Assembly: GCA_049317345.1 (NCBI GenBank)
Contig: JBMOIL010000001.1
Location: forward strand, 1-40,240
Reading direction: 5' to 3'
Length of the DNA stretch: 40,240 nucleotides
From: Candidatus Nanopelagicales bacterium
GTDB lineage: Bacteria; Actinomycetota; Actinomycetes; S36-B12
Shown here piece after piece: positions 4,122-31,292 of the stretch. Positions within the stretch are counted from its first letter, which is position 1. Each line of letters opens with the position of its first letter. A program made the translations under genes and the position numbers. The notes below the pieces were generated by a model. The model ran no database searches and was not told the DNA's origin. It saw only the letters and a program-made list of their open reading frames with translations.

Positions 4122-4922
4122 GTGAGCAACAGGGAGCCCGGGCCAGGCAGGTCATCCGACGTCCTCGACGCAATCCTGGGCAAGGTCTCGGACAACCGCA
4201 CGCGCACGGAGACGACAAACGCTCTCTTCCGCGCCAAGGCCCTCGATCAGTTGGACATCGCAGCCGACATCGACAACCAACTCCCCCTGGTCTCGCGACG
4301 CAACTGGCTGCTCCTTGTCGGGGCCGCACTCATCGTCGTTGCCTTCGTGATCTGGGCGGCTCTGACCCCGGCCACCCAGTCGGTGTCTGGGACCGGGCGC
4401 ACCCTCGCGCCCTCCGGGCTGCTCTCCATCACGTCACCGGTCAGTGGATTTGTCGTCGAGATGACCGTCACCAGCAGCGATCCCATCCAGCCTGGCGACA
4501 AGGTCGCCCTGGTCCAGTCCGACTCTGCCCAGGTGCCGATCACGTCGATCGTCGCCGGCACTACCTGGCAGGTGTCGACGACGATCGGTTCGCCGGTGGC
4601 GCAGGGTGAAGTGATCGTGACCGTCCTGCCTGCCAAGTCGGAAACCACCGCCCTGGTGGTGCTGCCCGACGAGAGCGCCGAATTGGTGCGTGCCGGCATG
4701 ACGGTCAATGCCAACGGCAGCTCCGTAGGGACGGTCGCCGCCGTGCAGCCACCACTTCCCGCCGCGGAGGTCATGCAGCGGACCGGGATCACCGTGCCCG
4801 CGGGTCAGCTTGCCTCGATCGTCGAGGTCGCACTGTCGCAGCCCGCAGAGCCGGGGCGCTCGACGACCTACACCATCACGCTCACGAGCCAGTCGATCCT
4901 CCAGCAGATCTTCACGCGCTGA
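4122..4922 (+). CDS. NHLP-type bacteriocin system secretion protein (HlyD-like membrane fusion protein), set 1
   Basis: GTG start. It has the LFRAKALDQLDIAADIDNQLPLVSRRNWLLL motif followed by a single TM helix, then a beta-rich body. Its stop overlaps the next gene's start (TGATG). It is a paralogue of 26090-26872. Confidence 0.7.
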   Translation: MSNREPGPGRSSDVLDAILGKVSDNRTRTETTNALFRAKALDQLDIAADIDNQLPLVSRRNWLLLVGAALIVVAFVIWAALTPATQSVSGTGRTLAPSGLLSITSPVSGFVVEMTVTSSDPIQPGDKVALVQSDSAQVPITSIVAGTTWQVSTTIGSPVAQGEVIVTVLPAKSETTALVVLPDESAELVRAGMTVNANGSSVGTVAAVQPPLPAAEVMQRTGITVPAGQLASIVEVALSQPAEPGRSTTYTITLTSQSILQQIFTR

Positions 4923-7108
4923 TGTCGACGACAAGCCCGCCGCAGGCATCTACGAAGTCGGAGCATCCTCGAAAGCTCCGGCGGCGCGTACCCAGCATCC
5001 TCCAGATGGAGGTCACCGAGTGCGGGGCGGCGAGCCTTGGCATGGTCCTTGCGTACTACGGGCTCTTCCGCCCGCTCGAGGAGCTCCGGATTCGGTGCGG
5101 AGTCGCTCGTGACGGGGCGACCGCAAGGAACATCGTCCAGGCGGCACGCGCATACGGACTGAAGCCCCGCGCGATGAAGCGGGAGCCGCACCAGCTCAAG
5201 GACATGGCGTTTCCGCTCATCATCCACTGGCGCTTCTACCACTTCCTCGTTCTCGAGGGGTACTACCCCGGCGGCTGGTACTTGAACGACCCTGCCATGG
5301 GTCCGCGTACCTGCGACGACGATGAATTTGACGAGTCCTTCACCGGAGTCGCCATCGAGTTCAGCCCGGACGAGGGGTTCGAACCGGGCGGCAAGAGGCG
5401 CGGGGTCCTCGGCCGTCTGCTCTCGGCGGCAGGGACGGTCCGGCCGATGATGATCTTCTCCGCAATCCTGGCCCTGCTTCTCGTCGTCCCCACGATTCTT
5501 GTGCCCGCTGTCGTGCAGCTCTTCGGAAACGGCCTTGCCGGCGCCGAGGGAATCGCTCTTCAGGCTGCCATCCTCGGGCTGGCCATCGCTCTGGTCATGC
5601 AGGTGCTCCTTCTGTGGCTCCAGGGCGGGCTCTCGATGCGACTTGCCACCAAGATCACGACTCGTGTCGGTGCTGGCATGGTGCTTCGCCTCCTTCGATT
5701 GCCGATGGCCTTCCATGCCCAGCGCGGCGCGAGTGCCCTTGCCCAGCGCGCGCTCCTCATCGACCAGATGAGTGCCGCCGTGACCGCAGTTCTCGTCTCA
5801 GCCACCGGGGGAATGCTGCTCGCGGTCGTGGCCGGCGTGGTGCTTTTGGCACTCAACTGGGTGTCAGGTCTCGTTGCCGCTGCAGTCGCGCTCACGACCG
5901 CCCTCACGGTCCGGCACACCCTGGCAAAGTCGCGCGACGAGGCCAGTCGCGTCATCCGGGAGTACGTCGAGGTCGGCGCGGTGATGTCCTCCTCGCTAAG
6001 CCAGATCGAGCCCATTAAGGCATCCGGCACGGAGGACGGGATCATCGCCCGCGGCCTAGCGGCCGAGAACCGGCTGTTGGATGCCCAGCAGCGCATCGGC
6101 GTCCGCTCGCTCAACCTCACGATCCTGCCGGGGGTCCTCGCGGGAGGAGGCACTGTCCTCATCGCCATGGCAGCCGCGTGGCAGGTGCTCTCGGGCAACC
6201 TCGATCCAGGGGGATTCCTCGCTGTACTTGCCCTCGCCGCTGTCGTCATCGCGCCCATGTCGCAGGTGGTGGTCGCACTGGACCAGGCCCAGACACTGAG
6301 AGCAACCCTGGACCAGGTGGATGACATCTCCGACGCACCCGAGGATCCAGAGCTCGCCAACGTGCCGGAGGGCGAAGTGCCGGCCACGCTCGCGGGCGAC
6401 CTGCGACTGGTCGACGTGACCTTCGGTTACAGCCCCCTCGGTGAGCCGACGATCAGCAATCTCGACCTGCACATCTCCCCCGGCCGACGCGTGGCTCTCG
6501 TGGGTCCCAGTGGCTGCGGCAAGTCCACCGTGTCCCGTTTGGTCACCGGCCTGTACGCGCCCACCTCAGGTGAACTCCTCATCGATGGCCGGCCACGCTC
6601 TCAGCACGCACGGGGCGTCCTCACCGATCGCATCGCTCTGGTGGATCAGGATGTGACGATTTTCAGCGGCACGCTGCGCGACAACGTGACGCTCTGGGAT
6701 CCGACCATCTCGGATCGCGACGTCATGGCCGCGCTCGTCGACGCGCAACTGGGCGACCTCGTGGCCACGCGACCCGGCGGCCTCGACACCGAGTTGACGG
6801 AGGGTGGCGCGGACCTCTCGGGGGGCCAGCGCCAGCGCATCGAGATCGCCAGGGCGTTGGCCCGCAATCCCGTGCTCCTCGTCATGGATGAAGCGACGAG
6901 CGCCCTGGATCCGGTGACAGAAGAAGCCATTGACGTCGCGGTACGTCGGCGCGGCATCACCTGCCTGGTCATCGCGCATCGGCTCTCGACGATCCGCGAC
7001 AGCGACGAGATCGTCGTCATGCGTCAGGGACGGGTGGTTGAGCGAGGAACGCACGACGAGTTGATGCGCACCGGCGGCGCCTACGCACAGTTGGTGGGAA
7101 CCCAGTGA
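4922..7108 (+). CDS. Peptidase C39-domain ABC exporter (peptidase/permease/ATPase), set 1, catalytically intact peptidase domain
   Basis: The N-terminus reads ILQMEVTECGAASLGMVL (Gln28, Cys34 at nt 5021-5023), followed by HWRFYHFLVLEG and NDP. This is followed by six predicted TM helices, Walker A GPSGCGKST, signature LSGGQRQR and Walker B LLVMDEATSALD. Confidence 0.9.
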   Translation: MSTTSPPQASTKSEHPRKLRRRVPSILQMEVTECGAASLGMVLAYYGLFRPLEELRIRCGVARDGATARNIVQAARAYGLKPRAMKREPHQLKDMAFPLIIHWRFYHFLVLEGYYPGGWYLNDPAMGPRTCDDDEFDESFTGVAIEFSPDEGFEPGGKRRGVLGRLLSAAGTVRPMMIFSAILALLLVVPTILVPAVVQLFGNGLAGAEGIALQAAILGLAIALVMQVLLLWLQGGLSMRLATKITTRVGAGMVLRLLRLPMAFHAQRGASALAQRALLIDQMSAAVTAVLVSATGGMLLAVVAGVVLLALNWVSGLVAAAVALTTALTVRHTLAKSRDEASRVIREYVEVGAVMSSSLSQIEPIKASGTEDGIIARGLAAENRLLDAQQRIGVRSLNLTILPGVLAGGGTVLIAMAAAWQVLSGNLDPGGFLAVLALAAVVIAPMSQVVVALDQAQTLRATLDQVDDISDAPEDPELANVPEGEVPATLAGDLRLVDVTFGYSPLGEPTISNLDLHISPGRRVALVGPSGCGKSTVSRLVTGLYAPTSGELLIDGRPRSQHARGVLTDRIALVDQDVTIFSGTLRDNVTLWDPTISDRDVMAALVDAQLGDLVATRPGGLDTELTEGGADLSGGQRQRIEIARALARNPVLLVMDEATSALDPVTEEAIDVAVRRRGITCLVIAHRLSTIRDSDEIVVMRQGRVVERGTHDELMRTGGAYAQLVGTQ

Positions 7109-9936
7109 GCACGACATCGCAGGTACGGCCCCTCACGGCAGTCGACACGCTGCGACCCGAGCCGGGGGAGGTCATCGATGTGCTGGAGGGGGAGGTGCTG
7201 GTCTTCGCCGTCGGCACCGACGATCACCGCACTCCCCTGTGCACAGCGCGAGCCGGCTCCGTAGTCGTCGGCTGCAACACTGCACCCGATGGAGCGACCT
7301 TGCTTGTCACCGGGCTACCCGGGGCGCAGGTGCGGGTCACATCACTCGACAGCAACAGCCTGAATGCCGGGCAGCTCGACACGTGGCTCGACCTCCTCGG
7401 CTCATCGCTCGCTCAGGGCCGATGGCCCAGCAGCCTGGTGCCTGTCGCATCCGCGGGCTCAATGCTCGCTCCCGGGGAGTGCGTCGGGCCGCAGCGAGAC
7501 GACCCGCACCTGGTCTGGGTGCGGCTCACCGCTGGCACTGCAGACCTATGCGGCCTGGATGGAGCCACACTTGACGCGCAGTCACCACCGATTCCGATTC
7601 CCCGCGGCACCTGGCTGCGTGCGGGTCTGAGGTGTCGGATTGCCGAGGCGGACCCTCCGAGCACCACCGGGGAGTGGGCTGACGCTCTCGACGTGTGGGG
7701 GCGACTCACGGTCTCCGCGGTCGAGTCGCGGGCACGCCGGGCGGACCTTGCGGCGGCCCTCGAACGCCAGGCCGTGGACGCACGTTCGGGCGCAGCAATC
7801 CACAAGGGGGTGGATCTGCTCACCACGGCGGTCGGCGCCAAGGAGCGTCCGCCCGCCCTTGCGGACGAAGCCCAATCCCAGCAACTCTTCGCGGCACTGA
7901 CAGCAGCACGGGCCAGCGGTCTGACGATCACCGATGAGGCGCTACTTCGGGCCGCCGAGGATGTCGACAGCGGACGGGATCCCGCGGCCGCCCTCGCCGC
8001 CGTCGCCGACGCACGCGCCCGGCCCATCACGCTCGAGGCAGGATGGCACCGTCGCGAGGGGACTGCGAAGTATGTCGACGTCGTGCAGGAGCATTCCCGC
8101 GCTAGCGAGCCCCGAGCGCTCGTGTGGCGACGCGGCTGGGTGCTCATCGATGCCGACGGCCAGGGCCTGCCAGTAGACGACGAGGTAGCCGAACGCATCT
8201 CCCGGAAGGCCATCGAGTTCCTGCCTGTCCTTCCGCCACGACCGAGCAGCCTCTCCGACCTCGTCCGGCTCGCACAGCGTGGCAGCGCACGCGAGTGGGT
8301 CGCGGTAGGCATCGTCACCGCCCTCGTTGCCTCTATGGCCTTCTTCACACCGTTTCTCCTGGGCAGGCTGCCGACGCTCTTCTCCCAGGACGCTCCCGCG
8401 ACCGCCTACGCCGCAATTTTCATCGCTCTCCTGCTCATCGTGCTGGCGGGCGCGGCATGGCAGGCAGTGCGCGCCCTGGCGCTGCTGCGCGCGCGGAGCC
8501 GATCCGTGGCCGTCGCCTCCGGTGCTGTGTGGGAACGCATCATGCGACTGCCCGCACCGTGGCATGGCTCACGCAAACTTGGCGATCGACTCAATCAGGC
8601 GAGCTCGGTGAACTTCGCGTCCGCTGCATTCCCGGACGAGACCCTCACTCAACTACTTAACACCGCAGCAATTTTCGGTGCTCTACTCGCCATCGCGACC
8701 ACCGGCCCGGTGCTGCTCGTCGCGCTGCTCATCGTGTTCGCTCTGCAGGGGCTCGTCATCGCCGGCTTCCTGCGCGCCACCGTGTCACGGGCATCCGATC
8801 GGATCACCGCTTCCGCGGATGCGAGCGGGAGGCTAATCGAGATCCTGAGGGCCATTCCGCGCCTGCGCGTGAGCGGGGCCGAGTCGCGCGCCTTCCTCCG
8901 CTGGGCGCAGCTCCAGGCGCGTTTCGCCCAGGCGGATCTCAGTCTCCGTCGGATCACCATGGTCCAGGGTGTGGTCATCGCAGCATGGCCCGTGTTCACG
9001 CTCATCGTCATCATCGCGGTCATCGGCGTGACCGGTGGCACCTTCGGTGACTTCATCACCGCGCAGACGGCTGCGACGGCAGGCACGGTTGCTATCTCCG
9101 CCCTCGCCATGTCGGGCGGCGCCGCTGTTGTGGCGCGCCAGTCTCTCCTGCGTACCCGCCCCGCGCTCGAGGCCGTGCCCGAAGGCGGGGGCGACGGAAT
9201 CCAGCCCGGTGCGTTGAGCGGACTCATCGAGGTGCGAGACATCGTCTTCCGCTACGCGCCGGGCCTGCCCCCGGTCCTGGACCACGTGAGCCTGACGGTC
9301 AACCCTGGCGAGCAGGTGGCCATCGTCGGACCGTCAGGATGCGGCAAGACGACGCTGATGCGCATCATCCTGGGCCTGGAGAACGCCGAATCCGGCGTCA
9401 TGCTGGTCGACGGCCGAGATCTCAGCGGCCTGGACAAGCCAGCCGTGCGACGCCAGGTGGGATCGGTGCTGCAGTCGGCGGTTCTTCTTCCTGCCAGCAT
9501 CCGCGAAAACGTCGCCATGGGCCGGACGCTCACGCAGGACGAGGTCTGGGCTGCTCTCGATGCCGCCTTCGTGGGGGACGATGTGCGCAAGCTTGCCATG
9601 GGTCTGGACACTCCCGTATCCGATGGCGGCGGCACGCTATCGGGAGGCCAGCGCCAACGCATCCTCATCGCTCGCGCACTCGCAGGCCGGCCGCGCGTGC
9701 TCGTCCTCGACGAGGCCACCAGCGCGCTGGACAACATCACGCAGGCCGGGATTGTCTCGGCGCTCGACCAGCTGAACATCACGCGCCTCGTCGTAGCGCA
9801 CCGCCTCTCAACGATCCGCAACGCGGATCGCATCTTCGTGCTCGACGGTGGCCGGCTGGTCGATGAGGGCACATACGAGGAGCTCATCAGTCACCCCGGC
9901 CCCTTCCGAGACCTCGCTCTCCGCCAGGAGACCTAG
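7105..9936 (+). CDS. ABC exporter permease/ATPase with a ~400-aa N-terminal extension (NHLP export partner), set 1
   Basis: GTGA overlap with the upstream gene. It has a TM region, Walker A GPSGCGKTT, signature LSGGQRQR and Walker B VLVLDEATSALD. The N-terminal segment GEVIDVLEGEVLVFAV...ARAGSVVVG looks like a cNMP-binding-like beta barrel. Confidence 0.85.
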   Translation: MSTTSQVRPLTAVDTLRPEPGEVIDVLEGEVLVFAVGTDDHRTPLCTARAGSVVVGCNTAPDGATLLVTGLPGAQVRVTSLDSNSLNAGQLDTWLDLLGSSLAQGRWPSSLVPVASAGSMLAPGECVGPQRDDPHLVWVRLTAGTADLCGLDGATLDAQSPPIPIPRGTWLRAGLRCRIAEADPPSTTGEWADALDVWGRLTVSAVESRARRADLAAALERQAVDARSGAAIHKGVDLLTTAVGAKERPPALADEAQSQQLFAALTAARASGLTITDEALLRAAEDVDSGRDPAAALAAVADARARPITLEAGWHRREGTAKYVDVVQEHSRASEPRALVWRRGWVLIDADGQGLPVDDEVAERISRKAIEFLPVLPPRPSSLSDLVRLAQRGSAREWVAVGIVTALVASMAFFTPFLLGRLPTLFSQDAPATAYAAIFIALLLIVLAGAAWQAVRALALLRARSRSVAVASGAVWERIMRLPAPWHGSRKLGDRLNQASSVNFASAAFPDETLTQLLNTAAIFGALLAIATTGPVLLVALLIVFALQGLVIAGFLRATVSRASDRITASADASGRLIEILRAIPRLRVSGAESRAFLRWAQLQARFAQADLSLRRITMVQGVVIAAWPVFTLIVIIAVIGVTGGTFGDFITAQTAATAGTVAISALAMSGGAAVVARQSLLRTRPALEAVPEGGGDGIQPGALSGLIEVRDIVFRYAPGLPPVLDHVSLTVNPGEQVAIVGPSGCGKTTLMRIILGLENAESGVMLVDGRDLSGLDKPAVRRQVGSVLQSAVLLPASIRENVAMGRTLTQDEVWAALDAAFVGDDVRKLAMGLDTPVSDGGGTLSGGQRQRILIARALAGRPRVLVLDEATSALDNITQAGIVSALDQLNITRLVVAHRLSTIRNADRIFVLDGGRLVDEGTYEELISHPGPFRDLALRQET

Positions 9937-9938
9937 TC

Positions 9939-11210
9939 GTGCAGGTCAGCGGGCGTCCCGCGGCCTTAGTTGTCGCACTGGCTCCAGGGGTGAAACGCAC
10001 CTGGTCTGGGCTCCACGGGACCACCGGGCACACACAGCTCACCGACGGTCCGCTGCTCGACGCCCTCGAGGAGGGCGCGACACTGCAGCGCCTGCTGGAG
10101 GTGGGCACGCCACGCGCTGGCCGCGACGTGAGGGGCGTCCTCGAGACCCTCCACCACAGGCGGCTCATTTGCTGGCAGGCCATGGATCCCAGGGGCACGA
10201 TCTGGGCAACGCTTCTGCCGCTGCGCAGTGACCTTCCGCTTCCGGAGCCACCCACCGAGGCCGTCGAGCACAGCATCCATCTGTCACGCTTCGCGCTCAT
10301 GCGCTCAACCGGGGACCTGTGGTTAGTGGAGTCCGGACGCTCGCCGTTCTGCGCGATCTTGTCAGGCGAGGCATCAGCAGCATTCACCTCCGGCGAGGGG
10401 CCAGTCGAGCTCGGGTCGCTCCTAGCGATGGGCTGCCTCCTCGACGACAGCGACGACGACGGGCTCGCGCGCTACTGGGAGTTTCACGATCGATACTTTG
10501 CCTCGCGATCGCGCATGGACTCCGCCCCGAGCGGCGGGACCTTCCGCTTCGCCGGCGTCCACGACCCGGAGCCCGCCATCTCTCGGCCACCGCACGTGGG
10601 TCCCGTGATCGAGTTGCCTATTCCCGACCCCGGCGACCCCGGCCCAGGGATTTGGCAGGTCACGGAGAGTCGTCGCAGCCATCTCGACACTAGCGACAAG
10701 GCGCTGGAACTCGATCGGCTCGGCTCCCTCCTGTGGCACACCCTGCGCGTGACCGATTCGCGTCTACGCGATCCCCAATCGGCGACGTCGTACGACGGCA
10801 TTATGCGTCCCATTCCCTCGGGAGGTGGCACTCACTCGATTGGGCTGTGGCTCGGCGTGCGCAATGTCGCGGGCATCGACTCCGGGGCGTGGTGGTACGA
10901 CCCTGAGGAGCATGCGCTGGTGCGCGTCGCGGACGTACCCGAGCAATTCGGCGAGACGACTGTCGCTGTCCACGGCCTGCTCATCAGCCGTCACGCGCGC
11001 CTGGCGTGGAAGTACGAGGGGATTGCCCATGCGCTCGCGCTCAAGGACTGCGGGGTGATCCTGCACGCCCTGCAACTCGGGGCCACGGCACTTGGTCTTG
11101 CCATGTGCCCGATCGGGAGTGGTCCCACGGCGCCCGTGCTCGATGCCCTGGGACTCGATGAGGATGAGTACATACCCGTGGGAGAGTTCTGGTTGGCGAT
11201 GCCGCTCTAG
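9939..11210 (+). CDS. SagB/ThcOx-type FMN dehydrogenase (azoline oxidase)
   Basis: GTG start 2 nt after the upstream stop. The C-terminal nitroreductase-like half has MRPIPSGGGTHSIGLWLGVRNVAGIDSGAWWYDPEEHALV and ALKDCGVILHALQLGATALGLAMCPIG, which is typical of SagB-type dehydrogenases. Confidence 0.8.
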   Translation: MQVSGRPAALVVALAPGVKRTWSGLHGTTGHTQLTDGPLLDALEEGATLQRLLEVGTPRAGRDVRGVLETLHHRRLICWQAMDPRGTIWATLLPLRSDLPLPEPPTEAVEHSIHLSRFALMRSTGDLWLVESGRSPFCAILSGEASAAFTSGEGPVELGSLLAMGCLLDDSDDDGLARYWEFHDRYFASRSRMDSAPSGGTFRFAGVHDPEPAISRPPHVGPVIELPIPDPGDPGPGIWQVTESRRSHLDTSDKALELDRLGSLLWHTLRVTDSRLRDPQSATSYDGIMRPIPSGGGTHSIGLWLGVRNVAGIDSGAWWYDPEEHALVRVADVPEQFGETTVAVHGLLISRHARLAWKYEGIAHALALKDCGVILHALQLGATALGLAMCPIGSGPTAPVLDALGLDEDEYIPVGEFWLAMPL

Positions 11211-11914
11211 GACCCATCGGCGAGGGCAGCGAGTTCTCGCCAGGTTTCCTCGTCGCCGTGGCCGACCGCCGCGTCCACCCACTCGTCGGCCAGCGCCTCG
11301 CGCACCGCATCGGCGGGCACGGTCGCTCTATTTGCCGGAGCGCGTCGAAGCCAATCTGGGTGCACCCGCGCCCATCGCGCGAGATCGTCCGCTCTCGTCG
11401 ACAGGTCCTCGGTCCGGCACCACCAGGTGCGGTCCCGGGGCAACGCGGCGATGGCCTGTGCCGCCTGGCGCCAGTAGCCCATGGCCGCGTTAAGAAATGC
11501 CTGCGGCTCCTCGAGGGGCTGTGATCCCATGTCGTCAGCGCCGCTCGCGCGTCCCCACGCAAGGTGCTCTTCGCTCACCTCACCCATCGCAATCAGCATT
11601 CCGGCGAGGGAACGACACCAGTCGCGTGGATGCCGCACCGTGGCGACGAAGCGAGCGTCGGGGAAGAGGGCGGGCAAGCGGTCGGCCCAGGACCACAGGA
11701 AACTGGTCGAGTCCACCTCGGCGTTGCAGCGTTGATCGCGGGCAATCAGCCACGCTGCCACGTCTGCACGCGTCATCTCCCCGGCCTGCTCAAGGAGGCG
11801 CACATGCGCTGCCTCATCCATCTCGAACTCGTGGCGCGCACGAAGCACAGGAGCGAGCATCGTTGCGATTGACGTCGTGCCGCTCTTGGGCATGCCGCAC
11901 CCGATGAGATGCAC
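11207..11914 (-). CDS. Sulfotransferase-fold protein (PAPS-binding motifs), copy 1
   Basis: GTG start. It has a 5'-PSB-like loop GMPKSGTTS near the N-terminus and a 3'-PB-like VATVRHPRDWCRS. It is a paralogue of 15440-16312. Its stop overlaps the convergent SagB stop (CTAG). Confidence 0.6.
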   Translation of the reverse strand: MHLIGCGMPKSGTTSIATMLAPVLRARHEFEMDEAAHVRLLEQAGEMTRADVAAWLIARDQRCNAEVDSTSFLWSWADRLPALFPDARFVATVRHPRDWCRSLAGMLIAMGEVSEEHLAWGRASGADDMGSQPLEEPQAFLNAAMGYWRQAAQAIAALPRDRTWWCRTEDLSTRADDLARWARVHPDWLRRAPANRATVPADAVREALADEWVDAAVGHGDEETWRELAALADGS

Positions 11915-24012: not shown

Positions 24013-24132
24013 CGAGCGCATCGGACCCCGCGACATGACCTCAGGGTCAAGAGTTCACGCGGAAACCACGGCGCGCCCCTGTGGTGGGGGAATACTCAAT
24101 AGATCACTCGTCCCTGATGCTCGGAGGTCCCC

Positions 24133-24438
24133 ATGGCTATTCCCACCCGCTCCGCAGTCGAAGCGATCATCGCTGAGCGCATCACCGCCGACCCCGCCTT
24201 CCGCGACACACTCCTCGCCGACCCGCGCGCCGTACTCTCCGAAATCGTCGGCCTCGACATCCCCGACACCGTCCAGATCGACCTGCACGAAGAATCCCTG
24301 ACCCAGATCCACCTCACCATCCCCGCCAGCGAGGCACTCAGCGACGCCGACCTCGAACTCGTCGCCGGCGGCGGAGTCTGGGGACCCCCAGTGAGTTGCG
24401 GAACCCCCGATCCGGTCACCTGCGAAAACCCCGGCTGA
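24133..24438 (+). CDS. NHLP-leader RiPP precursor A8 (core GVWGPPVSCGTPDPVTCENPG)
   Basis: GGAGGTCCCC-ATG context. The leader has the ITADP and EIVGLDIPDTVQIDLHEE variants and a LELVAGG site. Confidence 0.9.
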   Translation: MAIPTRSAVEAIIAERITADPAFRDTLLADPRAVLSEIVGLDIPDTVQIDLHEESLTQIHLTIPASEALSDADLELVAGGGVWGPPVSCGTPDPVTCENPG

Positions 24439-24439
24439 G

Positions 24440-24504
24440 AGGTCCCTCCGGCACTTCTCACTCAGCCAGAGGTCGAGGAGATCATCACCGAGCGAGTTGC
24501 CGAT
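24440..24504 (+). pseudogene. Decayed precursor relic (RBS-like gaggtccc plus ~12 leader codons, ..PEVEEIITERVAD..)
   Basis: gagaggtccctccggcacttctcactcagccagaggtcgaggagatcatcaccgagcgagttgccgat parallels ggaggtccccatggct...gaagtcgaggcgatcatcgctgagcgcatcgccgccgat. It has no start codon, and the homology ends after GAT. Confidence 0.5.
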
Positions 24505-24633
24505 GGGGCGGGGGGAACCGGCAGTCGATATCGGCGGTCAGGAAGTCCGCGGGCGATCCCTAGCGGCTAGCCGCGCCTGGGCCCCATACTGAGACCACCT
24601 GCACGAGTTCCGTGCCTGGCACCGGAGGTCCCC

Positions 24634-24918
24634 ATGGCCGTCCCCACCCGCTCTGAAGTCGAGGCAATCATCGCTGAGCGCATCGCCGCCGATCCTGGCT
24701 TCCGCGACACTCTCCTCGCCGATCCTCGCGCTGTGCTGTCCGAGGTTGTCGGCTTCGACATCCCCGAGGGCGTCCAGGTCGTCCTGCACGAGGAATCCCT
24801 CACCCAAATCCACCTCACCATCCCCTCCAGCGAGGAACTCAGCGAGAGCGACCTCGAACTCGTCGCCGGAGGAATGTGCTGGTCGGATGTGTGCAGTTGC
24901 CTCTCCATCGGGCCCTGA
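24634..24918 (+). CDS. NHLP-leader RiPP precursor A9 (core MCWSDVCSCLSIGP)
   Basis: GGAGGTCCCC-ATG context, conserved leader, LELVAGG site. Confidence 0.9.
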   Translation: MAVPTRSEVEAIIAERIAADPGFRDTLLADPRAVLSEVVGFDIPEGVQVVLHEESLTQIHLTIPSSEELSESDLELVAGGMCWSDVCSCLSIGP

Positions 24919-25038
24919 CGAGCGCATCGGACCCAGTGACATGCCCTTAGGGTCACGAGTTCACGCGGAAACCACCGCGCGCCCCTGAGATAGGGACATA
25001 CTCAACGAACCACTCGCCCCTGATGCTCGGAGGTCCCC

Positions 25039-25311
25039 ATGGCTATTCCCACCCGCTCCGCAGTCGAAGCGATCATCGCTGAGCGCATCGCCGCCGATCC
25101 TGGCTTCCGCGACGCACTTCTCGCCGACCCGCGCGCCGTACTCTCCGAGGTCGTCGGCTTCGACATCCCTGAGACGGTACAGGTGGTCCTGCACGAGGAG
25201 TCCCTCACGCAGATCCACCTCACCATCCCCTCCAGCGAGGCACTCAGCGACGCCGACCTCGAGTTGGTTGCCGGCGGGGTGTGCTGGTCCAACCCGGCCT
25301 GCGTGGGATGA
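25039..25311 (+). CDS. NHLP-leader RiPP precursor A10 (core VCWSNPACVG)
   Basis: GGAGGTCCCC-ATG context, conserved leader, LELVAGG site. A 158-nt tract is identical to A4. Confidence 0.9.
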   Translation: MAIPTRSAVEAIIAERIAADPGFRDALLADPRAVLSEVVGFDIPETVQVVLHEESLTQIHLTIPSSEALSDADLELVAGGVCWSNPACVG

Positions 25312-25324
25312 CCTGCGGTCCGTA

Positions 25325-25624
25325 GTGGCGCCTACTCCCACCCGCTCCGAGGTCGAAGCGATCATCGCTGAACGCATCGCCGCCGACCCCGCCTTCCGCG
25401 ACACCCTGCTCGCTGACCCCCGCGCCGTTCTGTCCGAGGTCGTCGACGTCAACATCCCCGAAGGCGTACAGATCGTCCTGCACGAGGAGTCCCTCACCCA
25501 GATCCACCTCACCATCGCCTCGTCGGGAAGTCTCACCGAATCCGACCTCGAACTCGTCGCCGGCGGGTTTTGGCGGGGCGGCCATGACGGAGGTCCCGGT
25601 CCCCACTGGTCGGACACCTCCTGA
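25325..25624 (+). CDS. NHLP-leader RiPP precursor A11, divergent N-terminus, Cys-free core (FWRGGHDGGPGPHWSDTS)
   Basis: The probable GTG start lies 13 nt after the A10 stop, with no GGAGG. The leader is (M)APTPTRSEVEAIIAERIAADPAFRDTLL...IASSGSLTESDLELVAGG. The ORF track's ATG at 25268 lies inside A10. Confidence 0.65.
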   Translation: MAPTPTRSEVEAIIAERIAADPAFRDTLLADPRAVLSEVVDVNIPEGVQIVLHEESLTQIHLTIASSGSLTESDLELVAGGFWRGGHDGGPGPHWSDTS

Positions 25625-25647
25625 TGCGGCACGACCTGCGGTCCCTA

Positions 25648-25932
25648 GTGGCGCCCGTCCGCACCCGCTCCGCAGTCGAAGCGATCATCGCTGAGCGCAT
25701 CACCGCCGATCCTGGCTTCCGCGACACCCTCCTCGCCGACCCGCGCGCCGTACTCTCCGAAATCGTCGGCCTCGACATCCCCGACACCGTCCAGATCGAC
25801 CTGCACGAAGAATCCCTCACCTAGATCCACCTCACCATCCCCTCCAGCGACGAACTCACCGAATCCGACCTCGAACTCGTCGCCGGAGGCGGCAATTGCT
25901 GGTCGAACAGTTGTCGCTTTCCGGGAGCGTGA
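25648..25932 (+). pseudogene. Precursor A12 interrupted by an in-frame TAG (at the conserved Gln of SLTQIHL); the downstream frame is intact (core GNCWSNSCRFPGA)
   Basis: TAG at 25822-25824 sits where all other copies have CAG or CAA. The same frame continues IHLTIPSSDELTESDLELVAGGGNCWSNSCRFPGA to TGA at 25930-25932. The start is GTG 25648 or ATG 25624. Confidence 0.7.
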
Positions 25933-26010
25933 AGATGAGATCGACTTTCCCGTACGTCGTGAGATCTGCAGGGGTAGGCCTTCCGCACCCATGACGCCAC
26001 TGCGTACGCG

Positions 26011-26026
26011 GCTCTCGCGCGAGAGC
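26011..26026. promoter_or_regulatory. Perfect 16-bp palindrome GCTCTCGCGCGAGAGC between the precursor array and the second export operon
   Basis: Read directly from the sequence. It could form a 6-bp stem with a 4-nt loop or act as a dimeric-regulator operator. No T-tract follows. Confidence 0.3.
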
Positions 26027-26089
26027 TCGCCGTAGCAGGCCTTGACCCGTCCGCCTGAACGCCGTGAGCCGAATCGCTAGGGTCGACGC

Positions 26090-26872
26090 ATGGAGGGCAG
26101 CGTCTCCCCCGTGGCGAGGGTCGATCAGGTAGCCACTTTCGCTCGCCCACGCATGTGGGTGGCCCTGATCGGGATCATCGTGCTGCTCCTGGCATTCATT
26201 GCCTGGGGCTTCATCGCCCGGGCACCGGTCAGCGTCGCTGTCGGCGGTCTCATCACCACATCCGGTGGCGTCTCCGCCATCAGGAGTTCGCTGACCGGCA
26301 CGGTGAGCGCGGTCTACGTCGACATCGGGGACCGGGTCGACGTCGGCACCAGCGTCGTGTCGATCAAGGACGATCTCGGTGCCTCGGCAGAAGTCAGGGC
26401 CAAGATCCCCGGCACCGTGCTCGAGGTCGCCACAAGGGTCGGAGCCTTTGTCACCGCAGGACAGGAACTGATGATCCTGCAGACAAACGACGAGCCGCTC
26501 ACCGCCATCGCACTCGTGCCGGTGACCGACTCTGGTCGCATCACATCGGGCCAACAGGTGCTCATCTCCCCCTCCTCCGCATCACCATCGGAGTACGGCT
26601 ACATCCAGGGCACCGTGGACTCGGTAAGCGGTATTCCCATCAGTTCAGCGCGCCTCGAGCAGCTCACTGCGGGGATTGCCGGGCTGGCCAATTCCGAGGA
26701 CCTGACCGGGCCGGTGCTCGAGGTCAGCATCGTTCTCGCGTCTGCGGACACGACCTCGGGCTATGCCTGGACCATCGGCGCGGGTCCGCCGTTCGCGCTG
26801 CTCGCGGGGACGCCCTTCACAGGAGAGATCATCGTGGGCGAGCAGGCCCCGCTCGTGCGATTGCTGGGCTGA
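26090..26872 (+). CDS. NHLP-type bacteriocin system secretion protein (HlyD-like), set 2
   Basis: It has the same architecture as 4122-4922: VDQVATFARPRMWVALIGIIVLLLAFIAW as the TM helix, then a beta-rich body. An in-frame TAG at 26078 fixes the start. A TGATG junction links it to the next gene. Confidence 0.7.
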   Translation: MEGSVSPVARVDQVATFARPRMWVALIGIIVLLLAFIAWGFIARAPVSVAVGGLITTSGGVSAIRSSLTGTVSAVYVDIGDRVDVGTSVVSIKDDLGASAEVRAKIPGTVLEVATRVGAFVTAGQELMILQTNDEPLTAIALVPVTDSGRITSGQQVLISPSSASPSEYGYIQGTVDSVSGIPISSARLEQLTAGIAGLANSEDLTGPVLEVSIVLASADTTSGYAWTIGAGPPFALLAGTPFTGEIIVGEQAPLVRLLG

Positions 26873-29142
26873 TGCACGTCCCCGTGCGCCTCGCACTCGG
26901 CGCCAACGAGACGGGCGTCGCCTGCCTGGCGATGCTCCTCGCCGCGTGCGGGACGCGCATCGGCCAGGAGGAACTGATCAGGACCATCGGCGTCACGCGC
27001 GACGGACTGAGCTTCCGTGAACTCGCCGACACCGCTGAGGTTTACGGCGTCCGTGCCGAGATCCGGTCCGGCAACCCCGACGTACTCGACTCAATGGCCC
27101 TTCCCGCGATGGTGCGATGGGGCCACTCGCACGCTCGCGTACTTGAGTCGCGCACCCGCAGCGGCTGGGTCGCCGTCGACCCGATCCTGGGGCGCCTGCA
27201 GATCAGCGATGACGACCTGCGGGCGGCCTGGGGCGGGGAGGCGCTCGCGCTGGACGGATCGACGGCGCGCCGAGGAGTTAAGTTGTGGACGGGCGTGGGA
27301 CGTCGGCTGAAGGGCAGTGGGCCCGGAATCGCGTTCGTCGTGCTTGCCGGCCTCGCGCTCATCATCCCGGGCCTGCTGGCCCCGGCGCTCATCCGCGCAT
27401 TCGTCGACGAGTACCTGATTGCCGGCGACCGGCAGGGATCGCTCAGCATCTTCATCGGGCTCGTGGCCGCGTTGGCGGTCGGTCTCGTGATCGGCTACCT
27501 GCAGGCACGCGGCCTGCAGCGCCTGCTCACCGTCTCCGTCATCCGCAACGCCTCCCACTTCGTCTGGCATCTCCTGCGCATGCCCGCGTGGTTCCTGACC
27601 CAGCGCGACGCCACGACCCTCTCCTACCGGGTGCGCCTGAACGAGCAACTCGCCGACGTAATCTCAGGTCGGTTCGCAACGGCGCTGCTAGCCGAGCTCA
27701 CCAGCGTGTTCTACCTCGTGGTGATGTTCGTCTATTCCCCGATCCTCGGTCTCATCGCCCTATCCGGACCCCTGCTCGTCATCGTCCTCGTCTGGCGCAT
27801 CACGCTGCTGCGCTCGGAGGTACGCCAGCGGCAGGCGCGCGAAGTCTCGGTAACGGCCACCGAACTAGGCGTCACCTTGCGCATGATCGAAACGCTGAAG
27901 GCGACCGGAAGTGAAGATGTCGCTTTCCAGCGCACCTTTGCATCCGTGGGCCGCCGCATCACCCTGGGGTATACCCGGCTATGGGGCTATCTCGCCATGG
28001 TCCCGGTGCTGGCCAACTCCCTCGCCACCGCTCTCGTCCTCTGCGTCGGGGCCTACCTCGTCATGCAGGGCAGCATCACCCAGGGCACCCTGGCGGCGTT
28101 CAGCATCCTGCTCGGTGGCTTCCTTGCTCCCCTCATCATCCTCGTGCCGACCATCGACTCGGTGCTCAATCTCCGGGGAGCCTGGGAGCAGTTGAACGAT
28201 GTGCTCAACCAGCCCGTGGAAGCGTCACTTGGGGACCCCTACGCCGATGGGGTCGACCCAGACGTCCCTGCGGAGGAGCGTGCGACCACGCGGCCAGGGG
28301 TATCTCATCCGGCATCAGCGCAGGCCACAGCGGTCGAAGAAGAGGAGGATCCCCTCGACCTGCTCGCCGCGGCCAGCAGGTCGGGGGTCAGCGGACGGCG
28401 CAAGCGTGGGCTGGCCATCGATCCGTGGGCGGCCTCACTCACCCTCAACGACGTGACCTTCGGCTACTCGCCGCGGCAGCCGCCGCTGCTCGACTGCGTA
28501 TCCCTGCAGGCTGAGCCAGGCCGCGTGATCGCCATCGTCGGTCCTAGCGGCAGCGGTAAGTCGACAGTCGGGCGCCTTGTCGGCGGGCTCTACCGGCCCT
28601 GGAGCGGAGCGGTCCTCCTCGACGGGCGCCCCATCGAGTCCTACCCCAGGGATGCGCGTGCGCGCGAGGTGACCTTCGTCAACCAAGACGTCGTGCTCTA
28701 CGCCGCCACAATCCGCGACAACATCACGATGTTTGATCCAGGCATCCGCGATCGCGACATCATCGCCGCCGCCCGGGATGCCTGCGTCCATGACGACATT
28801 ACGGCGCGACCGGGAGGGTACGACTCGATACTGGCTGAGGATGGCCGAGATCTGTCCGGAGGGCAGCGTCAGCGCCTGGTGATCGCCCGCGCACTGGTGC
28901 GCAGGCCTCGGCTCATCGTCCTCGATGAGGCAACGAGTGCGCTCGATGCGCGGACCGAGGCGCAGGTAGTCCAGCACCTGCGCGACCGCGGATGCACGGT
29001 GCTCGTCGTCGCTCATCGCCTGTCCACCGTGCGTGATGCGGACGAGATCATCGTGCTCGACGACGGCCGTGTCGCCCAGCGGGGCACCCACTCCACGCTG
29101 GCCGGCGAGCCTGGCCCCTACCTGGATCTGATGTCGTCATGA
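26872..29142 (+). CDS. ABC exporter with a degenerate C39-like N-terminal domain (permease/ATPase), set 2
   Basis: ATG at 26872 overlaps the HlyD2 stop. The N-terminus RLALGANETGVACLAMLL aligns with ILQMEVTECGAASLGMVL of set 1, with Gln->Ala and the catalytic Cys->Thr (acg at 26911-26913). It has a TM region, Walker A GPSGSGKST, signature LSGGQRQR and Walker B LIVLDEATSALD. Confidence 0.85.
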   Translation: MHVPVRLALGANETGVACLAMLLAACGTRIGQEELIRTIGVTRDGLSFRELADTAEVYGVRAEIRSGNPDVLDSMALPAMVRWGHSHARVLESRTRSGWVAVDPILGRLQISDDDLRAAWGGEALALDGSTARRGVKLWTGVGRRLKGSGPGIAFVVLAGLALIIPGLLAPALIRAFVDEYLIAGDRQGSLSIFIGLVAALAVGLVIGYLQARGLQRLLTVSVIRNASHFVWHLLRMPAWFLTQRDATTLSYRVRLNEQLADVISGRFATALLAELTSVFYLVVMFVYSPILGLIALSGPLLVIVLVWRITLLRSEVRQRQAREVSVTATELGVTLRMIETLKATGSEDVAFQRTFASVGRRITLGYTRLWGYLAMVPVLANSLATALVLCVGAYLVMQGSITQGTLAAFSILLGGFLAPLIILVPTIDSVLNLRGAWEQLNDVLNQPVEASLGDPYADGVDPDVPAEERATTRPGVSHPASAQATAVEEEEDPLDLLAAASRSGVSGRRKRGLAIDPWAASLTLNDVTFGYSPRQPPLLDCVSLQAEPGRVIAIVGPSGSGKSTVGRLVGGLYRPWSGAVLLDGRPIESYPRDARAREVTFVNQDVVLYAATIRDNITMFDPGIRDRDIIAAARDACVHDDITARPGGYDSILAEDGRDLSGGQRQRLVIARALVRRPRLIVLDEATSALDARTEAQVVQHLRDRGCTVLVVAHRLSTVRDADEIIVLDDGRVAQRGTHSTLAGEPGPYLDLMSS

Positions 29143-31292
29143 GCAGCCGCGAGCAGCGCGATTTCGATGCCGAACTCGCTGCCGCACGGCTCGGCCGGGT
29201 ACTGAACCCGGGCCGATCCCTCCCCGCGTCGCCGGATGGTGGCGGGCGCGCTGTCGCCGTGGTGGGCCTGCTCGGCGAGCAACTCAACTTCGTTCCACGT
29301 CCGGTCACAGTCGATGAGTCTGCCGCGCCACTCGAACAGGCACGCAGAATCGTCGAGGGCTCTGCGGTCCGCGCAAGGCCTGTGACCCTCGCCAAAGACT
29401 GGTGGCAACGCACCGTGCCCCCCCTGCTCGTCGAGCACGCAGGAAGCGTCGCCATCGTCCTACCGGGACCGATGTTCCGGCCGCGGCTGTGGCGCCCCGA
29501 GCGCGACCCGGTCCCCGTCACTGCTTCCGTCGCATCCGAGATCTCGCCGCGAGCCTACGAGATCACGCGACCTCTGCCCCCCCGGGCCGCAGGCCTGCGG
29601 GAGTTGCTCCGGCTGTCCCTCGTCGGGACGCGACGTGACTTCGGCTACGCGATCGCCATGGCGCTGCTACTCGGCCTCGTCAGCCTCGCGGTTCCCGTCG
29701 CGACCTCCATCATCTTCAGCGACATTGTCCCGACCGGGGACCGGGGACGGCTGCTTCTCGTCGCGCTCATCCTCGTCTCCTTCGCCGTAGCCGCAGCGAT
29801 GTTCGCGTACACGCGTGCCTACCAGATCAGTCGGCTGAGCGACGCAGTCGAGACAAGCACTTCGGGCGCCATCCTCGACCGGCTGCTGCGGGTGCCTGCC
29901 AGCTCCCTGCGCCGCTGGCCGAGCGCGGATTTGGCCAGCCGGGTTCTCGTGAGTGGGTCCATCGCAGCGGCACTGGATCAAGGCGTCTCGGTGGGTCTCA
30001 TGTCGCTGGCGCTAGTCCTCTTGAACGGCGTCCTCATGGTCATCCTGAGCCCGCCGCTAGGGGCCATCGCCCTCGCTGCAGGGGTGACGATCATCGCCGT
30101 GTCCTACGCGCTGAGCCGAGCAGAGGGGCGCCGCGTGCTGGTCGAGCTCGAAGACTGCAGCGACATGGAGCGCGTGAGCTTGGACATCCTGCGCGGTTGG
30201 GTGCCCGTGCGGCTGTCCGACGGCGACGTCTCCGCGTTTGGTAGGTGGGCAGCCGCATATGGCCGCTACCGTTCGGCCTTCAACGCCCGTTGGAATCTCG
30301 AGATCGCGTCCGACCTCATGCGCACGGCGGTCATCGGGCTCGCCCTCGCGCTCGTCGTCATCGTGTCCTATGCCCTGCCTACCGGGTCGGTCGACTCAGC
30401 CACCTTCCTCGCCTTCGTCTCCGCCTACGGCATCTTCACAGCAGGGCTGGCTGGAATCGCCGACAGCATCCGAGCGGTCGTGCGCATCATCCCTGAGATC
30501 GACCGCGTCGCACCCCTCCTCGCCCTTGAAACCGAGAGCGGGCAGCAGCGGGAGGATCCGGGGGTGATCACAGGTCGCATCGACGTGCGTCGCATCAGCT
30601 TCCGATACGCCGACGACCTCCCCTGGATCCTGCGTGACATCACCTTCACGGTGCCCGCTGGTTCGTCCGTAGCCATCGTCGGCACGTCGGGTTCGGGCAA
30701 AAGCTCGCTGCTGCGGCTACTGCTCGGCTTCGAATCGCCCCGCAGCGGCACCATCCTCTACGACGAGGCGGATCTTGATGTGCTTGACCTGACACTGCTA
30801 CGCAGGCAGTTCGGCGTCGTGCTGCAATCCAGCCTTCTGCTTCCTGGCACTCTCCGCGACAATCTCACCGTTTCGAGCGGGCCGCTGCAGGATGCGCGCC
30901 TGTGGGACGTGCTGGAGCAAGTCAGCCTCGCCGACTGGGTTGCCGCGCTTCCCCTGGGCCTCGACACCACCGTGGACGAGGGATCGACCATCCTGTCCGG
31001 CGGGCAGCGACAGCGGCTGCTCCTCGGGCGCGCGATCGCGGGCAATCCGGTCGTCCTCTTCTTGGACGAGGCGACCAGCGCCCTGGACAACATCACCCAG
31101 GCCGCCGTGACGTCCACGATCTCCCGCCTGGGCATGACACGTGTGGTCATCGCGCATCGACTCTCCACCGTGCAGGACGTGGATCAGATCATCGTCCTCG
31201 ATCAGGGGCGTATCGCTGAGTCGGGGGACTACGCATCACTCATGGCAGCCAAAGGAATCTTCGCCGAGCTCGTGACAAGGCAGGAGCTCTAG
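29139..31292 (+). CDS. ABC exporter permease/ATPase (NHLP export partner), set 2
   Basis: ATGA overlap with the upstream gene. It has a ~150-aa N-terminal soluble region, a TM domain, Walker A GTSGSGKSS, signature LSGGQRQR and Walker B VLFLDEATSALD. Confidence 0.85.
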   Translation: MSSREQRDFDAELAAARLGRVLNPGRSLPASPDGGGRAVAVVGLLGEQLNFVPRPVTVDESAAPLEQARRIVEGSAVRARPVTLAKDWWQRTVPPLLVEHAGSVAIVLPGPMFRPRLWRPERDPVPVTASVASEISPRAYEITRPLPPRAAGLRELLRLSLVGTRRDFGYAIAMALLLGLVSLAVPVATSIIFSDIVPTGDRGRLLLVALILVSFAVAAAMFAYTRAYQISRLSDAVETSTSGAILDRLLRVPASSLRRWPSADLASRVLVSGSIAAALDQGVSVGLMSLALVLLNGVLMVILSPPLGAIALAAGVTIIAVSYALSRAEGRRVLVELEDCSDMERVSLDILRGWVPVRLSDGDVSAFGRWAAAYGRYRSAFNARWNLEIASDLMRTAVIGLALALVVIVSYALPTGSVDSATFLAFVSAYGIFTAGLAGIADSIRAVVRIIPEIDRVAPLLALETESGQQREDPGVITGRIDVRRISFRYADDLPWILRDITFTVPAGSSVAIVGTSGSGKSSLLRLLLGFESPRSGTILYDEADLDVLDLTLLRRQFGVVLQSSLLLPGTLRDNLTVSSGPLQDARLWDVLEQVSLADWVAALPLGLDTTVDEGSTILSGGQRQRLLLGRAIAGNPVVLFLDEATSALDNITQAAVTSTISRLGMTRVVIAHRLSTVQDVDQIIVLDQGRIAESGDYASLMAAKGIFAELVTRQEL

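Follow-up and report, generated by a model that had tools for sequence, protein, structure and literature searches.

Analysis of a 40,240-nucleotide stretch of DNA from Candidatus Nanopelagicales bacterium (assembly GCA_049317345.1, contig JBMOIL010000001.1, positions 1 to 40,240 of the forward strand; hereafter the window) revealed that the 27-kb part between positions 4122 and 31292 is a real biosynthetic gene cluster for small ribosomal peptides with nitrile-hydratase-alpha-like leader peptides (NHLP, proteusin-type). These peptides are probably azole-bearing and prenylated and cyclised on a tryptophan. All genes between 4122 and 31292 encode NHLP precursors, tailoring enzymes or exporters, as found by hidden Markov model (HMM) searches, structure and paralogy. 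This is what an earlier annotation made from the letters alone (the sequence-only reading) had stated, and its gene map is correct. The feature that unifies the cluster, a prenyltransferase and cyclase pair together with an invariant core tryptophan, was missed there because the cyclase was taken as a fold and its neighbour as an orphan. The two proteins of this pair are the following.

14430-15443, minus strand: monodomain class II terpene cyclase, MstE-like (phmmer against PDB, family profile).
12750-13688, minus strand: ABBA-fold aromatic prenyltransferase, predicted tryptophan prenyltransferase, 312 amino acids (AlphaFold2 model, Foldseek, hhalign).

The cyclase gave no match in Pfam and, in NCBIfam, only a 15.7-bit match to a hopene-cyclase model. 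Comparison with PDB by phmmer revealed near end-to-end alignments with 6ij1, entitled 'Prenylcyclase' (E 8e-48), and with MstE, the merosterolic acid synthase (6sbf, E 2e-46), and the protein is 35-40% identical to these prenyl-chain-cyclising enzymes. A profile built from 30 homologues matched MstE with an E value of 5e-92. The residues D116-A-D118-S-T were found to be invariant or nearly so in the 30 homologues and align with DADTT of MstE; we take this site to be where class II cyclases carry their DxDD-type acid motif. Thus the terpene-cyclase fold of the sequence-only reading stands and can be narrowed from a mere fold to a class II terpene cyclase. The likely start is GTG at 15443, giving 337 amino acids, because this length matches a 97%-identical relative and because the GTGA overlaps the upstream stop codon; the open reading frame extends to an ATG at 15512. 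MstE (PDB 6sbb-6sbg), 6ij1 and the window protein are alike as single-domain class II cyclases of about 330-370 amino acids with the shared DADST/DADTT. They differ in substrate, which is free geranylgeranyl-dihydroxybenzoate for MstE and presumably a prenylated peptide for the window cyclase.

The protein encoded at 12750-13688, called an orphan by the sequence-only reading, models as a barrel of the ABBA aromatic prenyltransferases. Nothing useful was found for it in Pfam or NCBIfam, and its profile found nothing in PDB even at an E value of 10. The AlphaFold2 model, built from a 23-sequence alignment, has a predicted local distance difference test score (pLDDT) of 93, a predicted template-modelling score (pTM) of 0.91 and five alpha-alpha-beta-beta repeats. 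The best 50 Foldseek matches listed from PDB are all ABBA/DMATS aromatic prenyltransferases, with the best template-modelling (TM) scores at about 0.55-0.60, and they include LimF and KgpF, which prenylate peptides, besides CymD, 5-DMATS, MpnD, TleC, CloQ and AmbP1/3. The assignment as an aromatic prenyltransferase therefore reaches the level of the predicted fold. The family is rare: a search of 5.8 billion proteins gave 26 clusters at 90% identity, a filter-free HMMER scan of 1.84 billion gave 23 representatives, and none of them is annotated. Its profile matches the N-terminal domains of exactly the five Nostoc fusion proteins adjoining NHLP precursors. The homology is distant yet collinear: in hhalign, 284 columns align with this Nostoc domain (E 7e-5, probability 63%), and the blocks common to both families are GIDHIK/GLNHIK and KAYVGA/KIYFGA.

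The two genes lie in the same operon, with one PhyH oxygenase gene between them, and this operon stands between the genes for the YcaO cyclodehydratase and the SagB dehydrogenase. They are kept together in ten related loci (L002, L003, L005-L007, L085-L088 and L090). Elsewhere, many homologues of the cyclase are the C-terminal domains of stop-to-stop frames of 690-810 amino acids, the genera including Nostoc, Tolypothrix, Pedobacter and Chitinophaga, and a prenyltransferase fold adjoining a terpene cyclase, fused or split, recurs across phyla. One such locus, from Eremiobacterota (L019), carries a prenyltransferase-like open reading frame directly upstream of a cyclase, with no ribosomal-peptide context recognisable on annotation. 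A working unit of this kind is described in the available text of the review PMC13290415, with reference to Hubrich et al. (2024, Chem 10:3224): NctPC, with an ABBA P domain and an MstE-like C domain, geranylgeranylates (C20) tryptophan and then cyclises the chain, and ChrPC carries out the same reactions with a P domain resembling trans-isoprenyl diphosphate synthases. The same text calls the fused architecture common and not obligatory, and a product has been named 'steromaze' (PMC13647313, available part). By sequence comparison, the window pair is probably the split-gene form of this fused prenyltransferase-cyclase unit, with a divergent prenyltransferase.

The precursors would supply the acceptor. 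Three of them scored 60.7, 63.6 and 59.8 bits against TIGR03793 (cut-off 50.9), and so the call of an NHLP-leader cluster for peptides that are made by the ribosome and then modified post-translationally (RiPPs) is upheld. All 12 leaders are 78-96% identical to one another and end in ELVAGG or ELVAGA (12 of 12 copies), and short, variable cores follow.

18634-18903, plus strand: precursor 1, core RCWVDGCTT.
19052-19348, plus strand: precursor 2, core FWAGDEACESGSCSCDHG.
19448-19738, plus strand: precursor 3, core (GA)GECWSEFNMCCSAGCI.
22537-22821, plus strand: precursor 4, core ILCWSDGCYPYPAS.
22987-23268, plus strand: precursor 5, core ACWADGGGTVICA.
23390-23674, plus strand: precursor 6, core (GA)GWGDDIRNRPEGCA.
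23734-24012, plus strand: precursor 7, core TCWSEGCYHPEP, with ACG at the ATG position.
24133-24438, plus strand: precursor 8, core GVWGPPVSCGTPDPVTCENPG.
24634-24918, plus strand: precursor 9, core MCWSDVCSCLSIGP.
25039-25311, plus strand: precursor 10, core VCWSNPACVG.
25325-25624, plus strand: precursor 11, core FWRGGHDGGPGPHWSDTS.
25624-25932, plus strand: precursor 12, core GNCWSNSCRFPGA, with an in-frame TAG in the leader.

Tryptophan was found at core position 2-4 after the GG/GA site in all 12 cores. Cysteine is present in 11 of them, the remaining core having Ser/Thr only, and the motif x-C-W-[SAV]-[DEN] occurs in eight. Core length ranges from 9 to 21 amino acids. The count of 12 precursor loci (three plus nine) in the sequence-only reading was right; 10 of the copies are clearly intact. 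Precursors 7 and 12 look disabled yet retain good CWS(E/N) cores, and in precursor 12 the TAG stands at the conserved Gln codon of LHEESLTQIHL. Recent pseudogene formation, errors of assembly or unusual expression may explain these two. In the precursor array a search for tandem repeats gave a single pair, of 289 bp; a DNA tandem array was ruled out, the copies being too diverged and unevenly spaced.

The tryptophan is not peculiar to the window. We searched 80 genomic loci with cyclase homologues, using an HMM of the window leaders, and every cyclase-adjacent NHLP precursor recovered has tryptophan in its core. The cores are VNWRGNQIC… and IAWGCGC… in a metagenome-assembled genome (MAG) from a second Actinomycetota lineage (L003), DSSTWGPNCATC in Pilimelia terevasa, …NHSWTGCASG… in five Nostoc loci, AWSWEVC… and DTIWSWVTKC… in a Bacteroidia MAG and CTWGANC… in Microseira wollei. 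Leaders and cores are widely divergent across these cyclase-associated lineages, and tryptophan is their common element. The Nostoc precursors (L011-L013, L016 and L017) have two tandem NHLP-like leader domains followed by a single GG site and core (…NHSWTGCASGQSGCVATKGC…). A second, divergent family of NHLP-like precursors, not present in the window, was found in L089 (11450-18011) and L085 (15944-16273), with leaders of the form …LAALAPALTDA…AELSEEQL..VSGG and with cores that are either C-rich or LPPQDRAPLGINGLYRNPSW. The L089 copies are accompanied by a YcaO of their own (43% identical) and by an FAD-dependent enzyme resembling Trp halogenases.

The invariant tryptophan, which holds also across phyla, bears on the idea that the pair makes a free sulfated meroterpenoid and that its genes are embedded in the RiPP cluster by chance. 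The activity of MstE would suit this idea: the enzyme acts on a small molecule, a geranylgeranyl-arene, by protonating its terminal olefin, and the aromatic ring ends the cascade (PMC9401909, available part). Many homologous cyclases also lie in loci without detectable NHLP precursors. Besides the core tryptophan, the translational coupling of the genes between YcaO and SagB, the published peptide-bound precedent and the finding of no pathway genes for a small aromatic acceptor in the window make a free meroterpenoid very improbable.

A second alternative does away with the isoprenoid. The alpha/alpha-toroid of the cyclase would act on the peptide itself, as an acid catalyst or in a LanC-like manner, to form a Trp-Cys or other crosslink, the barrel would be a scaffold or inactive relic, and azoles, radical-SAM crosslinks, hydroxylation and sulfation would remain. 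Cysteine soon after tryptophan (W-x(1-8)-C) in most cores, in many lineages, fits a Trp-Cys link, and several cores stand against it in having no Cys after Trp, namely FWRGGHDGGPGPHWSDTS in the window and, in L085, VCWSDDSGTGA and ACWSDIPTPPPTGP. The identity of 35-40% with true prenyl-chain cyclases, the retained acid motif and the recurrence across phyla of the prenyltransferase fold and cyclase pairing, a published working unit, argue likewise for an isoprenoid, and we consider its absence unlikely. A tryptathionine, that is a Savige-Fontana-like Trp-Cys link in which PhyH oxidises Trp and the toroid is the acid catalyst, was considered and rejected in view of the prenyltransferase barrel, the cores without Cys after Trp and the published prenylation precedent.

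Several points weigh against a prenylated and cyclised product. The prenyltransferase call combines a predicted fold (9-16% identity, TM about 0.55-0.6) with a weak profile match. Some ABBA-fold proteins of RiPP (cyanobactin) clusters are inactive, for example PatF, and this also favours the alternative without isoprenoid. No prenyl-diphosphate synthase gene was found within the 40-kb window, a result that again suits that alternative and bears on both the donor and its chain length. In a distant relative, L091, the prenyl module may be separable from the rest of the cluster. For the other tailoring enzymes, the targets of the oxygenases, sulfotransferases, radical-SAM enzyme and DUF2332 protein are guesses, the structural matches of the last are weak, and the radical-SAM enzyme scores far below the cut-offs of the models for its nearest families (97 bits against 518.7 for rSAM_nif11, 84.5 against 340 for PapB and 65.9 against 425 for SCIFF). 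All that goes beyond the assignment of families and folds, namely enzyme order, sites, donor length and product chemistry, is inferred. Prenylation and cyclisation of the core tryptophan nevertheless remain the probable reading.

The genes around the pair fall into three operons, whose junctions are 4-nucleotide overlaps or gaps of a few nucleotides, much as the sequence-only reading described them (overlapping or 2 nucleotides apart). The first plus-strand operon (4122-11210) encodes the HlyD-like adaptor, the C39-ABC (ATP-binding cassette) exporter, the second ABC subunit and SagB. The convergent minus-strand operon (18465 down to 11207) encodes the YcaO fusion, sulfotransferase b, the cyclase, the PhyH oxygenase, the prenyltransferase-fold protein, the PhyH-like protein and sulfotransferase a. 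The second plus-strand operon (18634-31292) encodes three precursors, the radical-SAM/SPASM enzyme, the DUF2332 protein, nine precursor loci and a second set of HlyD/C39-ABC/ABC exporters. The G+C content of the window is 66%, hence spurious long open reading frames occur on both strands. Besides the pair, the following tailoring enzymes were found.

9939-11210, plus strand: SagB-type FMN dehydrogenase for azoline-to-azole oxidation, with an N-terminal ThcOx-type domain (TIGR03605 101.2 bits, cut-off 78.4; PF00881; PF22767 31 bits).
16309-18465, minus strand: fused E1-like leader-binding protein and YcaO cyclodehydratase, 718 amino acids (PF02624 241.6 bits; TIGR03882 65.3 bits, cut-off 36.9).
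11207-11914, minus strand: sulfotransferase a, of the type using 3'-phosphoadenosine-5'-phosphosulfate (PAPS) (PF17784 42.5 bits, cut-off 22.8; GMPKSGTTS; RHPRDWCRS).
15440-16312, minus strand: sulfotransferase b, PAPS-type (PF17784 40.6 bits, cut-off 22.8; GLPKTGSTS; RDVRSWVNS).
13685-14446, minus strand: PhyH-family Fe(II)/2-oxoglutarate oxygenase (PF05721 33.9 bits, cut-off 22; WHSD).
11949-12728, minus strand: second PhyH-like oxygenase, 259 amino acids (no Pfam match; paralogue of the PhyH protein; WHAD).
19936-21501, plus strand: radical S-adenosylmethionine (radical SAM)/SPASM maturase (PF04055 40 bits; TIGR04085 32.2 bits, cut-off 27; CNLRCVYC).
21505-22485, plus strand: DUF2332 protein, resembling class I SAM-dependent methyltransferases (PF10094 113.9 bits, cut-off 25; glycine-rich motif VDLGTSAG).

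HMM searches thus bore out nearly all of the earlier family calls, with YcaO, TIGR03882, SagB, SPASM, PhyH, Sulfotransfer_4, DUF2332 and the NHLP leader above their cut-offs. The YcaO fusion scored 170.8 bits against TIGR03604, under the cut-off of 219. The second PhyH-like call has no Pfam match of its own and holds by paralogy: the two proteins are 27% identical over 249 amino acids (E 6e-28) with the HxD motif aligned. The two sulfotransferases are also paralogues (E 4e-14); the 5'-PSB loop PKxGxT and the 3'-PB pattern R-x7-S are motifs of PAPS-dependent (cytosolic) sulfotransferases. The nearest PDB entry of the radical-SAM protein is 5wgg (E 7e-17), presumably CteB, a thioether-forming enzyme. 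Taken with its equivalog scores, the protein appears to work like the maturases of nif11, PapB and SCIFF while lying outside those equivalog families, and a thioether linking Cys with the D/N/E of CWS(D/N/E) is no more than a plausible guess. The AlphaFold2 model of the DUF2332 protein (pLDDT 92) has its best Foldseek matches with PPM1 (a leucine carboxyl methyltransferase), KedS8, EgtD and SgvM (TM 0.23-0.36), and a methyltransferase-like fold is suggested.

PhyH-like genes accompany cyclase homologues in several other phyla. A 629-amino-acid protein (P0107), on a contig of 2.6 kb, has a cyclase homologue (37% identity) fused to a PhyH domain, which suggests that oxygenase and cyclase share one substrate. 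Because of this fusion and of the PhyH genes beside cyclases in other phyla, the terpenoid, or the junction between Trp and terpenoid, is mildly favoured as the PhyH target.

Export is provided by two sets of genes.

4122-4922, plus strand: HlyD-like membrane-fusion adaptor of set 1, 266 amino acids (PF13437 30 bits; TIGR03794 45 bits, N-terminal part only).
4922-7108, plus strand: C39 peptidase/permease/ATPase exporter of set 1 (PF03412 110 bits; PF00664; PF00005; TIGR03796 778 bits).
7105-9936, plus strand: second ABC permease/ATPase subunit of set 1, 943 amino acids (TIGR03797 533 bits).
26090-26872, plus strand: HlyD-like adaptor of set 2 (TIGR03794 129.5 bits; PF13437 50 bits).
26869-29142, plus strand: C39-like/permease/ATPase exporter of set 2 (TIGR03796 630 bits; PF03412 59.5 bits).
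29139-31292, plus strand: second ABC permease/ATPase subunit of set 2 (TIGR03797 585.9 bits).

The models of the NHLP trio are the best match for all six proteins, and every score is under the equivalog cut-off (TIGR03794 156, TIGR03796 853 and TIGR03797 709 bits). An orthologue of the 266-amino-acid adaptor has the same place in L002 and L088. The C39-ABC proteins of the two sets are 35% identical, with ECG aligned to ETG. In set 1 the catalytic Cys is intact (QMEVTECG); in set 2 Thr replaces the nucleophile Cys (ANETG versus TECG) and Leu replaces the upstream Gln. Because the peptidase Cys is lost, exporter 2 alone cannot release cores; judged from these residues, it may bind leaders without cleaving them.

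From these assignments the following pathway is proposed. The fused leader-binding/YcaO protein and SagB would convert Cys (possibly Ser/Thr) to thiazol(in)e, guided by the leader. The ABBA-fold protein would alkylate the indole of the conserved Trp with a long prenyl diphosphate (C15-C20), which would come from primary metabolism because the window has no prenyl-diphosphate synthase. The MstE-like cyclase would protonate the terminal double bond through its Asp motif and give a polycyclic terpenoid on the peptide. The two PhyH oxygenases would hydroxylate the terpenoid or the beta-carbon of Asp/Asn, and the two PAPS-type sulfotransferases would then sulfate these hydroxyls. On CWS(D/N/E) cores, the CteB/PapB-like radical-SAM enzyme would join Cys by a thioether to the acidic or amide residue and the DUF2332 protein would add a methyl group. 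The C39-ABC/ABC/HlyD proteins of set 1 would cleave the leader after GG/GA and secrete the product. Taken in full, the proposal describes short thiazole/thioether peptides bearing a hydroxylated, O-sulfated polycyclic terpenoid on Trp (a steroid-sulfate-like head), the terpenoid being made by a previously unrecognised stand-alone family of Trp prenyltransferases with a stand-alone MstE-like cyclase, on 10-12 cores, in abundant uncultured freshwater Actinomycetota. This complete picture is put forward tentatively, at somewhat less than an even chance.

Comparison with relatives revealed the same gene set and order on independent contigs from metagenomes, the proteins being 60-85% identical, and for this reason the arrangement is not due to chance. 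L085 and L086 (about 70% identical proteins) span the cluster from the flank with the HAMP-domain gene to a single exporter, in the order precursors, DUF2332, radical SAM, precursors, YcaO, sulfotransferase, cyclase, PhyH, prenyltransferase, PhyH-like, sulfotransferase, SagB, precursors and exporter. They have no exporter set 2, and the HAMP and 240-amino-acid genes at their flank are those that follow exporter 2 in the window. L089 and L090 (about 68-78% identical) have cyclase/sulfotransferase/YcaO, precursors, radical SAM and DUF2332 in the same order, on contigs that end before the SagB/exporter side. The same minus-strand operon is present in L002, L005-L007 and L088. One of these, L005 (CAMAVT010000014.1), is titled 'MAG: Bifidobacterium breve' yet carries the cluster, and the label looks wrong; the other close relatives are MAGs of uncultured Actinomycetota or actinobacterium, with isolate names that resemble lake-sample codes.

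These relatives bear on the choice between one cluster and two. Two independent adjacent NHLP clusters with their own products would divide the window into YcaO/SagB/prenyl/oxygenase/sulfotransferase genes with exporter 1 (4122-19738) and radical-SAM/DUF2332 genes with exporter 2 (19936-31292). Such a division would account for two complete HlyD/C39-ABC/ABC sets that are only 35% identical. In L085, moreover, core types sort by position, CWSD-type cores standing beside radical SAM/DUF2332 (as in L089 and L090) and GA|G(x)W…C-type cores beside SagB and the exporter; in the window both core types, CWS(D/N/E) and GA|G(x)W…C, lie on both sides of the radical-SAM gene, and the 12 leaders are 78-96% identical, as given above. 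The modules also occur apart: L003 has the prenyl/YcaO/sulfotransferase module without radical SAM or SagB. The distant L091 (JGI 3300020048) has radical SAM (59%), YcaO (50%), SagB (44%), sulfotransferase (48%) and DUF2332 (40%) with a CWTN-type core, AVCWTNSCTSGGP (AVCWTNSC), and no match to this prenyltransferase family; a cyclase-like match of only 20 bits was found there, in a 361-amino-acid open reading frame beside an unassigned one of 303 amino acids. In L091 the prenyl module may take a third form or be missing. Against a division into two clusters, radical SAM and DUF2332 directly adjoin the YcaO operon in L085, L086, L089 and L090, of which the first two span the whole cluster with a single exporter, and exporter 2 of the window is without the peptidase Cys. 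Two separate clusters are therefore quite unlikely. Since the complete set persists in relatives that have only one exporter, our analysis agrees with the one integrated cluster of the sequence-only reading.

The flanks of the cluster consist of unrelated genes: copper amine oxidase and M10 peptidase upstream, and genes for a HAMP protein, ParA-like protein, PfkB, DeoC, M15 peptidase and aldo-keto reductase downstream. Directly 5' of the first exporter operon, positions 3277-4005 encode a matrixin-like (M10) zinc metalloprotease, a secreted protein whose N-terminus resembles a signal peptide; the related contigs stop short of the equivalent position. On the 3' side, positions 31527-33448 encode a HAMP-domain membrane protein (398 amino acids) and a 242-amino-acid protein without Pfam match, and the same pair (362 and 240 amino acids) flanks the cluster in L085 and L086. 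This pair may be a regulator or immunity pair of the cluster.

The assignments give a testable function to a rare family without annotation, that of the 312-amino-acid protein. If the reading is true, the cyclised-terpene modification of RiPPs also exists as separable genes, which would make mix-and-match engineering easier, and a single short peptide combines a terpene with azole, thioether, hydroxyl and sulfate groups. Terpenoid-peptides bearing sulfate would constitute a new amphiphilic class among natural products, and about 10 natural core variants under one leader would form a ready substrate panel. It would further provide a context for DUF2332 and point to specialised metabolism in uncultured freshwater Actinomycetota, known here from metagenomes only.

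Among known systems, the general frame is that of the NHLP clusters with thiazole/oxazole-modified microcins (TOMM), reportedly defined by Haft, Basu and Mitchell in 2010 (TIGR03793-03797, TIGR03882 and TIGR03604/03605). The window shares with them the leader family, the Gly-Gly site, the HlyD/C39-ABC/ABC trio and the cyclodehydratase with SagB, their models being the best matches. It differs in export scores under the cut-offs, in adaptors of 260-266 amino acids against a model of 421 positions and in six further tailoring families. The ranthipeptide/SCIFF maturases CteB and PapB have the same radical-SAM and SPASM domains, and the PapB model aligns end to end with the window enzyme. Sites modified by PapB are Cys-X3-Asp, and C-x-x-D/E/N of the window cores is similar. 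The window enzyme differs from these maturases in its scores (84 and 66 bits for PapB and SCIFF against cut-offs of 340 and 425) and in its leader, which is NHLP and not of the SCIFF or PapA type.

Nostatin A is an NHLP/proteusin product with azoles, dehydro residues, a sactionine bond and isobutyl-proline (PMC11583998, available part). It resembles the predicted window product in combining an NHLP leader, YcaO-type azoles and a radical-SAM thioether, and differs in a core of 30 amino acids against 9-21 and in that neither prenylation nor a terpene cyclase nor sulfation appears in the available text. The sequence-only reading had claimed that no characterised RiPP class combines such enzymes. 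This claim is overstated, as azoles with radical SAM on an NHLP leader are known from nostatin A and a terpene cyclase on an NHLP leader from the 2024 work, so far as the available texts go. For the full enzyme set it stands: no characterised counterpart was found in the full-text literature searched (MIBiG lay outside the scope), and the same searches found none for the split architecture, for the rare prenyltransferase family or for a pair coupled with YcaO/SagB and the other enzymes.

The closest relatives are the NctPC and ChrPC systems of Hubrich et al. (2024), which, in the available descriptions, share with the window an NHLP/proteusin-type precursor, a core Trp acceptor and an MstE-like cyclase unit. 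Fused enzymes of this type in the Nostoc loci were recovered as homologues with 37-39% identity in the cyclase part. In the window, unlike these systems, prenyltransferase and cyclase are separate genes, and the prenyltransferase belongs to a small family separate from the Nostoc P domain (profile E 7e-5). To the unit of Hubrich et al. the window adds YcaO/SagB, two Fe(II)/2-oxoglutarate oxygenases, two sulfotransferases, the radical-SAM/SPASM enzyme and DUF2332, and its host is an uncultured freshwater Actinomycetota lineage, whereas those systems, as described, come from cyanobacteria and Bacteroidota. Overall, our analysis suggests that the cluster is most likely a predicted elaboration of the peptide-terpene chemistry first described in 2024.

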